NCBI GenBank assembly: GCA_963701095.1
Contig: OY969564.1
Location: forward strand, 96,001-160,000
Length of the DNA stretch: 64,000 nucleotides
From: an uncultured Methanoregulaceae archaeon
GTDB taxonomy: Archaea > Halobacteriota > Methanomicrobia > Methanomicrobiales > Methanospirillaceae
Direction of reading: 5' to 3'
Position 1 is the stretch's first letter, and the number at the start of each line of letters is the position of its first letter. Made by a program: the position numbers. This document shows positions 1 through 63,000 of this stretch, piece after piece.

Positions 1-3000
1 ATCGCGTATTGTTTTTTGCAGGAAAAAGGTTATTTCCTTCGTGAGACTTTCTTCTTTGCACCGGCAGTTTTTGTCGGTTTCTTCACTCCAGCGGATTTTT
101 TTCTGACCGGCTCCCCGGATATGGGATATCCTTCCCGGTCAGTAACCGTTTTAAATTCCGCCATGAGTTGACGGGTAATGGGGCCGGGTTTTCCTGAACC
201 GATAACTCTTCCATCGACCCAGGTGATGGGTGCAACCTCCGCTGCCGTCCCGGTGCAGATCAGTTCGTCAGCAGTATAGAGATCGAAGTATCCCAGGTTT
301 TGTTCACGAAACGTAATACCCAGCGACTCGGCGAGTTCCTTGACGACCATCCGGGTAATCCCCCGGAGGTTGTTAAGTGTATAGGGGGTGAGAATTTCGC
401 CGTTTTTGATGATATACAGGTTGTCGCCGGAACCCTCAGCAAGATACCCATTGGTATCAAAGAAGATCGCCTCGTCACCTCCTTTATAGTTCGCTTCGAT
501 CTTTGCAAGAATGTTATTGAGGTAATTGAGACTCTTTACGTTGGGTGGCAGTGATTCGGCTGCGTTTCTCCTGACCGAGACCGTAATAGCCTTGAGGCCT
601 TTCTCGTACAGGTCGCCGTACATTGCACCCCATGTCACGCAGATTACTATAACGGATGCTTTTGGGCATTTACGGGGATCGAGACCCAGATCCCCGATAC
701 CTCGGGTTATGATCGGCCGTATGTAAGCGTCGGTCAGTTTGTTCCTGCGCATTGTCTCGCAGATCACGTCGGTCATCTCTTCTTTCGTTATCGGCGGGGT
801 AATATCCAGGGTTTTTGCCGAATCGAACAACCGGTCGAGATGTTCTTTGAGCCGGAAGATTCTGCCCTTGTATGCGCGGATGCCTTCAAAGACACCGTCG
901 CCGTATAACAGGCCGTGATCGAACACGGAGATCTTTGCCAAGGCTTCAGGGAGGTATTTTCCGTCAATGTAAATGATCATATTAGTAACACTCCGTCAAG
1001 ATATACACTTTTATTTTTATACCCGTTTGGGTAATAAATGATCATTGTGTCTTCCAATACTAAAAAGATACGAAGTGTTCCGCTCTATCTCTCGCTGCTC
1101 GAAAAAGCCGGGCGCTCGCAACAAACTATCAGAACCTACCGGGAAGCATTGCTCTATTTTTCCCGGTTCCTGGACGTGCCGCTTGAAGAGCTGCACAAGC
1201 ACCTGAGCGTTGAGAACCTCCTCGCTTATACCGATAGCGCGGCCCTGAAAGATGCCAGCCAGAACACTCGTCGCATGTGGTTAGCGATCATCCACAAGTA
1301 CATGAAACTGAATGGCGTGGAGTTCGACGAGCTGGAGACTTCCGTATTCAAACTCCGGCGTGACGATGTCAGGCGTGACAAGCCGCTGAAGATTGAGACC
1401 TTGCAGAAAATGATGGATCTTGCGGATGTGCATATGAAAGCATACCTGTCATTCCTCATCTCGACGGGTTGCCGGATTAATGAATCAGCGGAAATTCTGA
1501 TTACGGATATACAAGGCAATAGGGTTACGATACGCCCGGAGATCGCCAAAGGACGACATGGTGGCACAACATTCCTGACATCGGAAGCCCGGGAATACCT
1601 CGACCTGTGGCTGCGTGAGCGGGACCAGTGGATTCAACAGGCAAATGTGCGGACGAATAATATCGGATTGCGCAGACCTCAGGGTGACCAACGGCTCTTT
1701 GCCTGCACATCAAATAATCTCTCGAAACGGTTTCAGAAACTGTATGAGACTGTCGACGGCGAGAGCAGCCCTATTAAGGGCGGAACTCGCAACAAGATCA
1801 CCCCTCACTCGTGTCGCGCATATTTCCGGACACATGCCGTCACCAGCATGGGGATTGACCTGGTTGAAGGTATCATGCGGCATACCGGGTATCTGAATGC
1901 CGCGTATGTCCGCATGTCAGACGATGAACGCGAGAGGTTGTTTCATCTCGGAGAACATGAATTGTACATCACGAGGGCAAGCATACGCAATGAGGAACGG
2001 AAGATCGAGGAGATCAGAAGGGAGCAGGAAGAGAAAATATTGACCCTGGAACGACGGACTAAAATACTGGAAGCCTTACTGAAAATCGATGACTCAAAAA
2101 AGAAATGATTTGCCCTTAGTTTCATTTTTTGAAACTTTTGGTATTTTTTTTATATCATGTAAAGCGTTTTAGATATACCGCCTTGATTCTGAATAGATGT
2201 TAATTCACAGGGTTAAACAACAGATTCAGAGGGCGTTTTGGATCTGTTACCTTTCATACCGCACGTTTATGCATATAGAATCGGTGATACTGCACGCGCA
2301 AGACTAGGTGAGGCCAATTAATCCGACCATCGACGAACAACTTAATGATACCAATAAAAATTACAGTACGGGATTTGACGAGGATTTTCGACAGATTATC
2401 ATCAATATTATCAAGAGCGAAGAGTTTTCAGAATTTCTAAAAAAGGAAATTATCGAGATTGCTGAGAGATAATTTCTCTCATTAAACGCTCCAGTTCTCT
2501 TTTTACAGCCGGGTTACTCTTCATAAATGTAAGGATGGTTTCCTGCATACTACCTTCAAACTCTTTCCGGTTTTTATAATACTGTAACGCGGTATTCACC
2601 AAGTCACTAACTGACTCAAAAGGAGGTTTATTTCCATCTTTTGAATCTGTCTGATCCTGAACCCATTTGTCAAGATCGTTATTTATCTTGAATGACACCT
2701 GCCGTTTTACCATAATCTTCTCGCCTCAATCTTAGTGATAATGGTACTACCATATACGTTATTTAATAGTATCACCATTTTTCCACCTTTTCGGCATGCT
2801 TATATTGTTCAATTTCGTAAGTAGATCCACCCACCATAGAGGTGTGAATGTAAAATGAGTAAACGAGCAACAATTGAACTCGGAGACAACAATGAACGCA
2901 TCGTTGACACGCTTATCGAAAAAGGCATTTATAAAACCAAAATTGAGGCGATTCGTGCTGCAGTACGTGAACATGGCATAAAGTACGGAGTTTTGGCATG

Positions 3001-60000: not shown

Positions 60001-63000
60001 ACCAGTGTGGTGCGCATCATCGTTTGATGTTGGGTATTACCGGGAATTGATCGATAAGGCATATGCCGAGATCAAGTTCGCATTTTCCTAAATAAGACAA
60101 AAAGAGAGATCCTGTGAACCTTCACCGGATTGTGGGGGCAATGAACCCACAATGTGCGGATAGGGCCTGTTTTGATTGAAAGGGAATATCACCGATCATA
60201 TACTTTCTTTCTCGGACCTACTTTTAAAATGGAAACCATCAATTCCGTATCATCAATTTCAAGGATGGCCCGATAGTTCCCGACACGCTGATGATACCAT
60301 GGATATCCCTCACATCGTTCTGCCGTGCGGTGAGGATCTTCCGATAACGATTCAATTTTATCAACAATTCGTTTTGAGATTGAGGGAGATAACTTCTCCA
60401 AATCCTTGCGTGAACGATCTGTCCAAAAAATAGAATAACTCATTCAATCCCAAGTTTGGCACGTACTTCTTTGGTAGTGTAGACATGCCCCTGACGGATA
60501 TCTTCTTGGGCCTCGGCAATGTCCTTTAAATCCTGCTCATCCAGATATGCATCCGGGTTTTTGCAGGTCTTTTTGATAAGCTCCGGCATGATACAATAGT
60601 TATACCCGGACGAGATTATCAAACCTGCGATTATTCCAGTCGTATTTTGCCCCTTGGGTATAATCGGGAATTGATCGATAAGGCATTGGCAGAGATCAAG
60701 TTCGCATTTTCCTGAATAGGACAATGAAAAAGAGAGATCCTGTGAACCTTCACCGGATTGTGGGGGCAATGAACCCACAATTGCCGGAGTGGATTCTGGT
60801 GCGTTGTCGGGACTTTTAATTAGTCAACATTGATAGGTCACGACGACTTCATTTTCGTGACATTCACGAGGGTAACATAAACCGGAGAGATTATCTCATT
60901 TTCGGGTCATTGTTTCATAACAATGGAAAAACTGTCGGTTGAGAAAATTATCGAGATTCACAACGACATCATTGAGGACTTCGGGGGGGAGCACGGCGTC
61001 CGAGATCTCGCAACTATCGAATATCTCATCTACCGGCTGGAGCGGAAAAGCAGCGTATTCCATAAGGCTGCAATTGCCTTGCACGCGATTTGCACCGATC
61101 ACCCCTTTATCGATGGAAATAAGCGGACAGCCTTTGTTGTTGCAGATAACCTGTTAAAGGAGAGTGGATACCGCATTCAGGCGACCGATGACGAGGTCGT
61201 CTCGTTTATGCTTGAAGTGGCACAATACACTCACACGATGGAATCCGTTAAAAAATGGATAAAAAAGAGTGCTGTATTACAGACGGCTTAACTGCTCAAG
61301 GGCGCGGTGATACGTCTTTTTGGTCTCGTCAAGGTGTGCCCGTTCGGTCTGGGTAAGTCCGTTTTTGGGCTGCTCTTGAGACTGCTTGTTTTTTATCTGC
61401 TCGTTCATGATCTCTTTTTATTTTTCCTCTGAAGTGATAAAACTATCAATACGACGTATCCGGGTTTTCAATAGTGAGATGCGGACATCCAAGGCCTCAG
61501 ACCCTGCCCTGCTTAATCAATAAATACATCGCTCCGGGAAAGTCATAATCGACTAATACTACACACTTTATACGATCTTAGGTTCGATCGTAAATAGTAC
61601 ACTCACTTTCACCCGATAACTCCCCCCTATTTTTAATTATTTTGTGATATTATTCTAATTATATAAGGAGATTAACTTGACGGTACGTTATTGTTAAATG
61701 CAAAAATCCGTTATCCGAATAATGGATGAAAAAAGATCAAATATTTAGTGATACTTCCCCGGCAGGAAGCGGTCTGACACAGAGTGTCTTCTGGTGCATA
61801 CCCCTCATAACAACATCGATCTTGCGGGAGGTCTCCGTAGTGTAATATGATTCCCCGCACTTTTCGCAAACATACGCCGGCACATCTTTAATTACAACGA
61901 TTTCGTTGCCAGCCCTTCCCATAAACTCTGTAGTGGATTCTTCGAGTGTTCCATCACAGAAAGAACAACGATCGAATTTTACCCTTGAAGGGCTCAAAGA
62001 GGACTTAGATTCGATTTTATGGCCACCGGACCTCTTTCCAATGCGAGTGGTTGACACGTCCTTATCTTTTGGTGCGAAGACAGGTGAGATGCTGTCTGGA
62101 TTTTCCGCAAACTTTTCCTTCATCTTTCGCATGAAGAGTTTTTCCGTATTTTTTGTTTTTGATGTTGCCATAATGCTTCCCCCCTTTGAATTACTTCGTT
62201 TTACCTTCTTCTACGGTGCTCTACCCATTTCTCTTCTTTCGGAAAATATGCGGTGATGACGACGAGATGCTCCGGGCAAAATGCTACTACTACATGATAT
62301 GCGATATGGTTAATAAAACCGAGTATAACGGCGGAGGGACAGGGAATTCTATGGGGATCTTCCTCAATTATTTCACCAGAAGCGACAATATCCATCACTT
62401 CGTCCGTTGAAATATTCCGTTCGAACATTCTGTCCCGGGCATGTTTAGATATGAGGACCGCATCCCTCTCAACAAATTCGGCTCTCCGCGCAGCTGCCTC
62501 CATTACATTTACCCTGACTAGGTTACCTGTCTATCATTATTCCATCGTAAAAGATATAATTAACTTCGATGGGATTCACGGGTTCTGTAAAGTCTGCGGG
62601 AAAACATAAGGAAAATGAGGCTTTCGCATGAGTGAGCACCCCCCGTCACTGGCAACTATCTGGAAATTCCAGATCGTTCATCCGCGAAATGGTGGGATAT
62701 TAACTGAGAAGTGAATGTGCAGATTATGCATTTTTTCTTTGAGTAACCATTTTTCATTAATCTGCGACGGAACTCCCCCTATTTTTAATTATTTTGTGAT
62801 ATTATTCTAATTATATAAGGTGATTAACTTGACGGTACGTTATTGTTAAATGATCATAGCATGTGATGGGGTTTCGTGGTTTTTTAGTTTTTTCTATGGC
62901 TCGGCAAAGAAAACCTTCTCTTTTACCGATCCCGCAGCCATTGTGGTCCGGGAATTACAAAAAAGAAGGTTACGAGATGTTCCTGCAGTGGTCAACAAAG

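Follow-up and report, generated by a model that had tools for sequence, protein, structure and literature searches.

Complete CRISPR-Cas systems encoded by viral genomes are known from bacteria, in Vibrio phage ICP1 (type I-F) and in huge phages, some of them with adaptation genes; packaging of such phages has been shown, as has the action of the ICP1 system against a defence island of its host. The element described here, an integrated provirus of a Methanoregula genome, resembles these phages in joining cas genes and an array to a virus genome, but it is archaeal and was identified in assembled sequence. CRISPR-Cas borne by archaeal proviruses is itself already known from haloarchaea, so the first-pass annotation went too far, in view of two reports (PMC12596717, PMC11705971), in calling them nearly undocumented on archaeal viruses. 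The haloarchaeal proviruses of Naki and Gophna 2025 (PMC12596717) encode type I-B systems, described there as without cas1, cas2 and cas4, that cluster apart from the systems of the host genus and have similar proviral counterparts in distant genera; one of the proviruses was also observed in circular form. Our element likewise holds a CRISPR-Cas system with its array in an integrated archaeal provirus, and can be read in the same way, as a defence module on the move whose protection goes to its owner and indirectly extends to the host. Unlike the systems treated in that report, it is of type I-C, includes adaptation genes, falls within the pool of the host genus itself, was seen in one element only and is described from assembled DNA. 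In the account given of it, CP095390_pro (Microbiol Spectr 2024, PMC11705971) is a head-tailed haloarchaeal provirus, 62,752 bp long, in which a type I-B system is nested; it has 135 spacers, and two arrays surround its cas cluster. One spacer matched an IMG/VR virus; the other proviruses tabulated with it are mostly much shorter. Our element shares its head-tailed organization, nearly equal size and large CRISPR memory, but belongs to a methanogen and is of type I-C. Sulfolobales viruses carry mini-CRISPR arrays (PMC6858448) and Bathyarchaeia viruses carry type IV-B systems with mini-arrays (PMC10848311), CRISPR elements which, like ours, are thought to be active in conflicts among mobile elements. 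As described in these reports they have one to a few spacers, or effectors without an adaptation module, and need host machinery, whereas the locus here combines all genes for interference and adaptation with 60 spacers. Type I-C loci on the chromosomes of Methanoregula and further Methanomicrobiales (G297, G221, G071, G139 and others) have the same gene order and repeat family, with protein identities to our locus of 64-97% outside Cas8c and 43-80% for Cas8c, but they lie among housekeeping genes and ours lies inside an att-bounded provirus.

Coordinates are positions within the window, the whole 64,000-nt stretch of DNA that was analysed, unless stated otherwise. The insert of 61.9 kb is flanked by two exact copies of a 12-bp core (TAAATGATCATA), attL at 970-981 and attR at 62847-62858; two or more matches to the core occurred in none of 100 shuffles. 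The attL copy holds the ATG (978-980, minus strand) of a class IV aminotransferase gene (30-980). The left flank was matched in 55 and the right flank in 57 of 60 other genomes of the genus, and the flanks were paired across genomes by matching the best places by hand. An empty site, with less than 500 bp between the two flanks on the same contig, was found in 37 of 55 related genomes; the flanks are 1.3-2.4 kb apart in 12 genomes, separated by gaps of 5.9 kb in G053 and 11.1 kb in G009, and on separate contigs in four (G018, G001, G027, G034). A short second right-flank piece (62847-62895) adjoins the left flank in 18 genomes, and in all eight of these that were checked (G041, G021, G048, G032, G025, G005, G030, G008) the flanks overlap by exactly 12 nt, so the core is single-copy there. 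The att-bounded insertion proposed in the first-pass annotation, with the core twice here and once in relatives, was thus borne out, as was its count of one integrase. This tyrosine integrase (1038-2108, plus strand; Pfam Phage_integrase with a SAM-like domain, phrog_1) is the element's only one and would have inserted it at the 12-bp core; the start codon of the aminotransferase was kept because the core is duplicated on insertion. In the nearest relative, G053, the same site holds a decayed remnant in which the same right arm is found together with host-like genes and an integrase cut to 108 aa (90% identical).

The element is a mosaic of a backbone of about 34 kb, made up of the integrase, replication, terminase, portal, head, tail and PolB-end parts, and two variable cargo slots. 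Its lysogeny/replication module (2117-11602, plus strand) includes genes for a DUF1064 resolvase-like protein (5866-6300), Dam (6225-6827), a DUF4238 protein (7142-8353), a ParB-like protein (9957-10595) and an ABC-ATPase/GNAT protein (10574-11602), all on the plus strand, and has a tetranucleotide correlation to the host of 0.95. The module is common to two sister elements, B and C, whose integrases are 15-19% identical to ours. The terminase subunits TerS (11648-12103) and TerL (12027-13652), both on the plus strand and assigned to phrog_309 and phrog_2, have 59-66% amino acid identity to IMG/VR relatives with the same gene order. The region at 14978-16752 (plus strand), two ORFs of 343 and 248 aa in the window and a single 596-aa ORF in the IMG/VR relative L051, probably encodes the portal: the closest clusters in the ESM Atlas are without exception those of portals (0.96), with no match in Pfam, PHROGs or PDB sequences and a poor AF2 model. 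The head and tail module (26995-39853, all plus strand) starts with a 464-aa zinc-ribbon protein and continues with a virion protein (28393-29291, split by an indel error), a Mu-gpT-like capsid protein (29294-30277), connectors and a tail terminator, the tail tube (32144-32878), chaperones, the tape measure (33661-35373), Dit (35373-36254), a Gp37-like protein (36232-38580) and the fibre (38588-39853). Its GC content is 0.55. Six IMG/VR contigs are about 90% identical to it in nucleotides. In the comparison with L051, identity is 88-98% for the structural proteins and about 90% for the DNA, a relation that fits purifying selection. The order TerL, portal, gap, 464-aa protein, capsid is conserved in six related IMG/VR records. 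The head-tail gene set reported in the first-pass annotation was recovered, here from TerS to fibre, and the att pair and this gene set support the identification of the segment as the genome of a tailed virus, integrated as a provirus.

The backbone closes with a family B DNA polymerase (PolB) paralogue (58090-60091, plus strand) common to all three elements. As had been noted earlier, B and C are similar in the replication module (79-94% in nucleotides) and have the same PolB (88-92% in amino acids) next to attR; both points were confirmed. The right end (60092-62846) contains a second copy of the PolB 3' end (60654-60788, repeating 60030-60160), a Doc/Fic toxin-like gene (60923-61291) and a DUF4258/zinc-ribbon pair (61737-62503) surrounded by a 78-nt right-arm repeat (61623-61700 and 62775-62852). 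This end belongs to the element type, because the same PolB adjoins attR in B and in C.

Cargo slot 1 is a low-GC island between the portal and head genes (16753-26950), with a Ser/Thr kinase-TPR gene (16888-19152), a TPR gene (19339-20163) and a type II restriction-modification pair of BsoBI-type endonuclease (21749-22705) and methylase (22747-24156) on the minus strand, followed on the plus strand by the element's one IS transposase (24476-25717) and a further TPR gene (25717-26550). In the present copy the kinase and the restriction-modification system are thus the cargo of slot 1. The gap between portal and head is about 1.0, 2.8, 3.3, 3.5, 4.5, 8.3 and 10.2 kb across seven genomes; related viruses hold different cargo of about 1-8 kb there, in L051 an M78 peptidase/DUF4411 pair and a HEPN protein, and defence-type cargo is also present in B and C. 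The related viral contigs thus show that variable defence cargo is carried in this virus group. Slot 2, from the tail fibre to PolB, measures 18 kb here versus about 4.8 kb in B, and its present cargo is the type I-C locus, placed between low-GC genes and host-like redox and MarR genes. The low-GC left part (39980-43450) contains small ORFs, a DUF7763-like protein, a DUF3800 gene (42047-42706, minus strand), a small membrane-anchored ORF starting at 42940 and a 33-nt sequence repeated perfectly on either side of a unique 34-nt insert (43132-43231, plus strand). The host-like genes on the other side, all on the minus strand, encode a flavodoxin/FMN-reductase-like protein (55836-56429, indel error at 56341), a ferredoxin-nitroreductase (56487-57335) and a MarR regulator (57475-57990).

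The cas locus lies where the first-pass annotation placed it, with the tail genes on one side and, on the other, the PolB end common to both sisters. It runs on the plus strand through cas3 (HD nuclease and helicase; 43603-45802, with the gene set starting at 43585/43603), cas5c (45807-46475), cas8c (46448-48364), cas7c (48361-49212), cas4 (ORF 49071-49895, the true start probably being later), cas1 (49947-50978) and cas2 (50989-51279). All seven genes (43585/43603-51279) matched subtype I-C models, so the set is complete, adaptation included, once indels are corrected. A leader (51280-51510) and the array (51511-55503), both on the plus strand, follow; in the latter, 60 spacers of 33-36 nt alternate with 32-nt repeats, of which there are 61, and the earlier count of 60 repeats should be amended. 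The repeats are all identical except the last, at the far end, which is degenerate with one mismatch. In the window cas3 is two ORFs with 2 nt missing after 44847, but its frame is restored by 2 extra nucleotides in Logan contigs from four of four public runs, and it is in one frame in eight of eight relatives. PolB is likewise two ORFs, with one extra nucleotide near 58918, and the portal and virion-protein genes are whole in the 90%-identical contig L051. Judged by these comparisons and by a like defect in at least 10 host genes, the frameshifts in cas3, PolB, portal and virion protein are indel errors of the assembly. The system is predicted to work by ordinary I-C immunity: the leader adjoining cas2 would drive the array, Cas5c would cut its transcript, Cas5, Cas8c and Cas7 would form the surveillance complex, Cas3 would degrade matching DNA, and Cas1, Cas2 and Cas4 would add spacers at the leader end. 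A second array was found nowhere in the genome, and its second cas1 stands alone; as the sole array found, this one would therefore protect the lysogen along with the element that resides in it. We infer an active system with the lysogen and element as its beneficiaries. Spacer targets were found neither in B or C nor in any virus searched, so the target searches lend no support to a role in excluding rival viruses.

By sequence relationship, the cas cassette belongs to the I-C pool that Methanoregula chromosomes hold. Its identity is 80-97% to loci whose neighbours are ordinary chromosomal genes in all four relatives examined (Pfam). Its Cas8c has relatives in 62 of the 301 genomes of the order and, within the genus, in 10 of 48 other genomes. 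Apart from two weak matches, window genes other than cas are absent within 17-20 kb of the locus in eight of eight relatives. The effector genes are nearest to G297 (80-96% amino acid identity) and the adaptation genes to G221 (Cas1 97%, Cas2 94%, Cas4 87%), whose repeat is identical too. The tetranucleotide correlation of the cas genes to the host is 0.86 versus 0.57 for the head-tail module. The cassette would have been captured from this pool by recombination, probably as a strain-level acquisition and not as an old virus trait. Cas genes are absent from B and C, and Cas1 was found in none of five related IMG/VR records, all of them fragments. The six close IMG/VR contigs stop short of slot 2. 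Slot 2 is covered by no related virus record, so the case for a recent capture is built on the lack of cas genes in B, C and records that are fragmentary.

We lean, with modest confidence, towards a provirus with swap slots, one of which took up a host-pool cassette at strain level that provides ordinary I-C immunity. The first-pass annotation had proposed a temperate virus with its own immune system; the provirus and the complete locus inside it hold, but the system is probably a recent capture rather than a trait of the virus, given a host-pool cassette and no cas genes in the related virus records examined. That a functional temperate virus excises, packages all 62 kb and turns a self-updating I-C system against rival viruses and mobile elements seems to us possible but doubtful. 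The intact integrase, exact att pair, conserved structural genes, indel-corrected cas3 and uniform repeats with degeneracy only at the far end would all be expected of such a virus, and defence cargo reaches 8 kb in viral contigs of the group. The genomes of the group may be large: a related IMG/VR contig reaches 53 kb, and sizes of 48-106 kb follow from CheckV completeness values of 13-65%. A packaged 62-kb genome would be compatible with these estimates, and the haloarchaeal provirus of 62,752 bp described above (PMC11705971) is a further point in favour. However, distant capsid relatives among complete phages have genomes of 36.6-38 kb, the cassette is host-type in ancestry and composition, the spacers match neither the sisters nor any virus searched, and no viral contig with the same or a close cas locus was found: besides the Cas1 result, a Cas7 scan of IMG/VR gave no match, and the 26 IMG/VR contigs that have I-C-type repeats are all unrelated, one of them having a distant cas set of about 30% identity.

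The host-like redox and MarR genes downstream of the array, the IS in slot 1, the right-end duplications (PolB 3' end and right arm), population breakpoints near 42776, 42964 and 43449 and the remnant in G053 could also be explained by successive elements at one site, or by a non-viral island in an immobile provirus, which would make cas part of chromosomal island DNA. We consider this unlikely, because there is a single integrase and one exact att pair, the PolB adjoining attR in B and C makes the right end native to the element type, the apparent decay frameshifts are assembly errors, and slot 1 varies in real viral contigs as well. Lastly, a virus-cas linkage created by error-prone long-read assembly appears highly improbable, even though the contig is rich in indel errors (matches in more than one frame for 26 of 82 compared ORFs, including at least 10 distinct host genes) and completeness is 86% for a single contig. 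The errors observed are small indels and not rearrangements. Contigs from the Logan run X1, which is probably the source sample and so not fully independent of the assembly, bridge 39056-43161, 43202-45148, 50751-51509 joined to 55405-56311, and 56286-57863. They cover the joins from fibre to island, from cas2 to array end and from array end to MarR, and the island-cas3 join except for 40 nt inside the 33-nt repeat pair. The 33-nt repeat is single-copy in three other metagenome runs.

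The 12-bp core TAAATGATCATA occurs as two exact copies in the window, at 970-981 and at 62847-62858 (attR), and none of 100 shuffles gave two matches. It contains the ATG of a class IV aminotransferase gene (30-980, minus strand), the start of which is preserved by the duplication of the core. The flanks of the insertion were searched for in 60 other genomes of the genus, the left flank being matched in 55 and the right flank in 57, and the best places were paired by hand. The two flanks lie less than 500 bp apart on the same contig in 37 genomes, 1.3-2.4 kb apart in 12 and on separate contigs in four, and the gap is 5.9 kb in G053, the closest relative, and 11.1 kb in a further genome, G009. 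A short additional match to 62847-62895 adjoins the left flank in 18 genomes, overlapping it by exactly 12 nt (checked by arithmetic for eight of the 18), and thus the core is single in the relatives and double here, around 61.9 kb. The integrase, the duplicated core and the empty site in relatives are as in an integrated tailed virus.

The 3′ end of the element's PolB gene, with 70 nt downstream, is present in two copies (60030-60160 and 60654-60788, 86-95% identity), and so is a 78-nt right-arm sequence entering the att core (61623-61700 and 62775-62852, 99%), which brackets a 1.15-kb DUF4258/zinc-ribbon gene pair. Both duplications have the appearance of relics left by repeated recombination or integration. 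At this att site G053 retains a 4.9-kb remnant (G053:C1:2035500-2043500) with a 90% identical integrase shortened to 108 aa, some host-like genes and the same right arm as the element, and G009 holds an unrelated 11-kb insert there (G009:C18:189400-202600). The right-end duplications and the decayed G053 remnant indicate that accretion and decay in place do occur at this site.

The content of the element was read from a Pfam scan of 74 ORFs and a PHROG scan of 54 ORFs; its GC varies between 0.36 and 0.57, the genome mean being 0.48. The tyrosine integrase gene (1038-2108) is followed by a lysogeny and replication block that extends to 11.6 kb (DUF1064 resolvase-like, Dam, DUF4238, ParB-like and ABC-ATPase/GNAT genes), by the small and large terminase genes (11.6-13.7 kb) and by ORFs without family assignment in these scans (13.7-16.75 kb), the probable portal gene (14978-16752) among them. 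A low-GC island (16.9-26.6 kb) encoding a Ser/Thr kinase-TPR protein, TPR proteins, a BsoBI-type restriction enzyme with its methylase and an IS transposase precedes the head and tail genes (27-39.9 kb), and a second low-GC stretch (40-43.5 kb) precedes cas3-cas5-cas8c-cas7-cas4-cas1-cas2 (43.6-51.3 kb) and the CRISPR array (51.5-55.5 kb). Three host-like genes (flavodoxin-like, ferredoxin-nitroreductase and MarR, 55.8-58.0 kb), the family B polymerase (PolB) paralogue (58.1-60.1 kb) and a Doc-like gene with the DUF4258 pair (60.9-62.5 kb) complete the element. In PADLOC the kinase matched PD-T4-6/mad6-type models, and the restriction pair was classed as type II. The DUF3800 protein, used as a query against metagenomes, found a 2.6-kb contig that was 99.96% identical to 40101-42583, and the remaining contigs shared the DUF3800 gene only. 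No RNA data set was listed as containing the virus region.

The structural genes are those of a tailed virus. The Mu-gpT-like major capsid protein is of the HK97 type (Pfam Mu-like_gpT, 7e-36; phrog_371) and matched capsid genes of 137 phage records by tblastn. The large terminase, TerL, matched phrog_2 (1.7e-21) and weakly Pfam TerL_ATPase (0.0076), and is 59-66% identical to the TerL of related viral contigs. The capsid gene is accompanied by connectors and a tail module of terminator, tube, chaperones, tape measure, Dit, Gp37-like protein and fibre. Six near-identical capsid relatives (98-100% aa, about 90% nt) are found on short IMG/VR contigs from two metagenomes. One IMG/VR contig about 90% identical to the element in nucleotides, L051, is collinear with 14606-16745 and 26954-34370, and its proteins are 88-98% identical where the DNA is about 10% diverged, a pattern that fits purifying selection on structural genes. 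The 596-aa ORF that follows TerL in the relatives is probably the portal: the ESM Atlas clusters nearest to it are portal clusters without exception (score 0.96). Five more distant IMG/VR records (46-63% portal identity) keep the order TerL, 596-aa protein, gap, 464-aa protein, capsid. The 596-aa protein had no relevant match in Pfam, PHROGs or a PDB profile search, and its AF2 model was poor (mean pLDDT 44). Neither capsid nor portal had relatives beyond one weak match each in 227 other genomes of the family; IMG/VR scans with the fibre and the Gp37-like protein found no relatives, and that with the integrase found one distant match. The att-bounded insertion with an empty site in relatives and the tailed-virus gene set with a single integrase, both proposed in the first-pass annotation, are borne out, the portal remaining a probable assignment.

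The cas locus has every component of a type I-C system. Cas8c (Csd1) matched Pfam Cas_Csd1 over its full length (E 8e-174) and PADLOC Cas8c (5e-159); the Cas5d/Cas5c, Cas7/Cas7c, Cas4c, Cas1c and Cas2c models were also matched, and Cas3, one protein once 2 nt are restored, has HD, DEAD, Helicase_C and Cas3 C-terminal domains. All seven Cas proteins were assigned by PADLOC to subtype I-C models, and no Cas6 family match was found among the ORFs scanned in the window. In type I-C systems the array transcript is processed by Cas5c, the surveillance complex consists of Cas5, Cas8c and Cas7, the target is degraded by Cas3, and spacers are added at the leader end by Cas1, Cas2 and Cas4. The array begins 231 nt after cas2, and the leader (51280-51510) presumably drives its transcription. 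It was first counted as 60 repeats and in fact comprises 61 repeats, each of 32 nt, separated by 60 spacers of 33-36 nt; only the last repeat departs from an otherwise identical set, and spacers 39 and 42 have the same sequence. Uniform repeats with a degenerate repeat at the far end fit spacer addition at the leader end. The signs of interference or uptake are indirect and lie in the sequence: these repeat features, the spacer held twice and a 67-nt insertion upstream of cas3.

As assembled, cas3 is split into 431 and 327 aa in two frames and PolB into 288 and 388 aa, as if both genes were decaying. The window is short by 2 nt in a C/G run near 44848, and cas3 has a single frame in eight of eight relatives. 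When Logan contigs of four public metagenome runs (X1, X2, X3 and X7) were mapped onto 39001-59000, contigs of all four had 2 extra nt after 44847, which join the cas3 frames, and contigs of X1, X2 and X3 lacked 1 nt at 58918/58919, which brings the two PolB frames together; the public contigs also corrected indels at 40412 and 56341. Their missing cover of the array, and differences in depth along the stretch in runs available as contigs, were left out of account. The same defect affects the genome at large, a single 2.6-Mb contig of 86% completeness. Multi-frame matches were obtained for 26 of 82 counterpart-bearing ORFs from relatives' loci (eight cas3, four cbiA, two antisense shadows, one paralogue and 11 on nine further host genes), and removal of the cas3, antisense and paralogue rows leaves ten distinct host genes affected, including cbiA in the right flank. 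The restored frames and the ten host genes rule out pseudogenes, so cas3 and PolB are intact and the complete type I-C locus, adaptation module included, stands as first described. Two virus genes are split by the same kind of error, the counterparts in L051 of 14978-16752 and 28393-29291 being single ORFs of 596 and 299 aa. Small indels at 40412, 44847, 56341, 58918, about 16006 and about 28750 split at least six genes of the element. Apparent pseudogenes of this genome should thus be taken as assembly errors and not as decay.

The ancestry of the cas genes points to the host gene pool. Of 301 genomes of the order, 62 have a relative of Cas8c, as do ten of 48 other genomes of the genus, and the identity drops roughly with taxonomic distance. 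Across 17-20 kb on each side of eight related loci, the cas genes were the only matches to the window, bar a 22% PolB-like match and a 26-29% kinase match, both weak. Pfam scans around the loci of four relatives (G297, G071, G139 and G221) found genes of housekeeping and regulation (alanyl-tRNA synthetase, UvrA/UvrC, RuBisCO-like proteins, transporters, fumarate reductase and SepF), and no virus genes or integrases. The cassette (43603-51542) is itself recombinant, with effector genes nearest one Methanoregula species, G297 (Cas5 96%, Cas3 C-terminal part 95%, Cas7 94%, whereas Cas1 is 86% and the repeat differs), and adaptation genes and exact repeat nearest another, G221 (Cas1 97%, Cas2 94%, Cas4 87%, whereas Cas8c is 43% and Cas5 64%). 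The tetranucleotide correlation to the host is 0.86 for the cas genes, 0.95 for the integrase-replication block, 0.66 for the low-GC islands and 0.57 for the head-tail module, against a mean of 0.89 and a first percentile of 0.70 for 8-kb windows of the host. The simplest reading is that a host-pool cassette would have been captured by recombination into the region between tail fibre and PolB, which we call slot 2. Three more runs, all of other studies, contain the cassette with hardly a change, a 4767-nt contig of X2 differing by one letter, and no contig in X2, X3 or X7 joins it to the tail genes, the breakpoints lying near 42776, 42964 and 43449. A 0.42-kb piece at 42964-43449, without a single differing letter, is terminal on 6.4-6.8-kb contigs of three other runs; since the rest of those contigs is unlike 39-59 kb, the piece is shared with another genomic context.

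Both places that hold defence genes in this element are variable in its relatives. Slot 1, which separates the portal from the 464-aa protein, has a length of about 1.0, 2.8, 3.3, 3.5, 4.5, 8.3 and 10.2 kb in seven genomes, the window having the largest; here it contains the kinase, the restriction system and the IS, and in L051 an M78-peptidase/DUF4411 pair and a HEPN protein. Two sister proviruses of the same genome, B (contig 786.6-848.8 kb) and C (contig 2069.2-2112.2 kb), share with the element the replication block (77-93% nt) and the PolB end (88.7-89.6% nt) and differ from it in integrases (15-19% aa) and head genes. Both sisters have defence-type cargo of their own. In B it comprises GmrSD, a reverse transcriptase with nitrilase, one HEPN and one GGDEF protein, in addition to BacA, PKD and radical-SAM genes; C encodes, in the interval from portal to capsid, a PLD-helicase and an Eco57I-type methylase. 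Slot 2 spans 18 kb in this element against about 4.8 kb in B, with no shared content, so the cas locus sits where this type of element varies. Its place within the virus boundaries, between the tail fibre and the PolB end common to B and C and inside the att pair, is as the first-pass annotation had it. The element exemplifies a group of temperate tailed viruses whose defence genes turn over at fixed slots.

The array is the only one found in this genome, and a cell that lost or gained the provirus would accordingly lose or gain its adaptive immunity. A second, solitary cas1 (contig 1216667-1217611) lies among metabolic genes beside three unknown ORFs (362, 586 and 274 aa), with no array or other cas genes detected near it. 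No spacer target was found in the genome itself, B and C included, in 94 collected loci or in INPHARED phages, and 227 genomes of the family gave only array-to-array matches and a few chance-level matches of 22-32 nt; exclusion of rival viruses, the role first proposed, is therefore conjectural. Conversely, 254 spacers from the arrays of six relatives and 30 from G221 had no match in this genome, and the element's array and that of G221 have no spacer in common.

The insertion upstream of cas3 (43132-43231) consists of a unique 34-nt insert between two perfect 33-nt repeats, 350 nt from the gene. Contigs of X2, X3 and X7 have a single 33-nt copy and lack the insert, so the window carries 34 nt of new DNA and a 33-nt target duplication, and a small ORF otherwise ending in a membrane anchor is broken by it. 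The similarity of the 33-mer to the CRISPR repeat is weak (shuffling gave p of about 0.06), and an IMG/VR scan with it found no relatives. The geometry is that of spacer integration, and ectopic integration by Cas1-Cas2 may be considered as a possible though not a probable origin, judged from the sequence. Off-target integration by Cas1-Cas2 is already known, and was reportedly the subject of a 'neo-CRISPR' paper.

On balance we lean towards a provirus that recently captured a host cassette and in which the cas locus serves the lysogen. A fully active virus that packages the locus seems to us rather unlikely, although the element has an intact integrase, an intact att pair and conserved structural genes, cargo in slot 1 is present in real viral contigs, and a head-tailed haloarchaeal provirus of 62,752 bp with a type I-B system and 135 spacers has been published (PMC11705971). 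Against packaging, no viral record with this cas locus was found: B and C have no cas genes, Cas1 is found in none of five related IMG/VR records, all five of them fragments, no close relative of Cas7 was found in IMG/VR, and the six close contigs stop short of slot 2. An I-C-type repeat pattern matched 26 IMG/VR contigs, none related to the element or its cas locus (19 with one solitary repeat, two with two and five with arrays of 4-13). The host-type ancestry and composition of the cassette also count against packaging. The backbone without its two islands is about 34 kb, and distant relatives of the capsid in complete phages belong to genomes of 36.6-38 kb. Lengths of 23.8-38.0 kb in the 30 best of the phage records listed for a related capsid (27-28% aa) suggested that 62 kb is too large for the capsid. 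However, the five closer IMG/VR relatives, of 53.4, 18.4, 22.4, 22.3 and 11.7 kb, have CheckV completeness of 65, 38, 27, 21 and 13%, implying 48-106 kb for the group, so that the argument from capacity is neutral.

The accretion and decay in place at the att site are a further point against packaging. We consider it improbable that the element is a composite or grounded island, as it has one integrase and one exact att pair. That the linkage of virus and cas genes is an assembly artefact is very improbable: contigs of X1, which is probably the source sample, span every join except 40 nt inside the repeat pair, and a chimeric assembly is therefore unlikely. A bolder reading, of an archaeal virus that carries self-updating immunity into each new host and whose Cas1-Cas2 left the 67-nt insertion as a footprint outside the array, we regard as doubtful. 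If the locus were packaged, adaptive immunity and its memory could pass between methanogen strains in a single infection.

Methanoregula is a major methane producer of peat and wetlands, and to our knowledge few viruses of methanogens have been described. Viruses of Sulfolobales are said to carry mini-arrays. Published reports describe haloarchaeal proviruses with type I-B systems that have no cas1, cas2 or cas4, recur in several genera and in one case were seen in circular form (PMC12596717), a 62.7-kb head-tailed haloarchaeal provirus with a nested type I-B system (PMC11705971), and viruses of Bathyarchaeia with type IV-B systems and mini-arrays (PMC10848311). As provirus-borne CRISPR-Cas is thus already published for haloarchaea (PMC12596717, PMC11705971), the initial description of such systems on archaeal viruses as "nearly undocumented" was too strong. 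In our literature search neither a type I-C system nor any CRISPR-Cas locus on a methanogen provirus came up; supplements of provirus surveys, which lay outside the search, might list one. This element is set apart by its adaptation module, its host-pool ancestry and its being the cell's only array. The haloarchaeal cases have no adaptation genes (Naki and Gophna), and a complete system would be an instructive counterpart to the view that adaptation is outsourced by proviruses.

A 47-nt match between the region upstream of PolB and the left flank of B was considered as an att relic and ruled out, being part of a short element present at eight genomic places. This element, of 58-76 nt and with an inverted repeat, extends into an ATG and the first codons and lies at 58052-58119 of the window and at contig positions 846448, 2109932, 716116, 786248, 783974, 782048 and 601733. 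Each of the three PolB paralogues has it at its start, and another of the sites is about 270 nt upstream of the host PolB copy.
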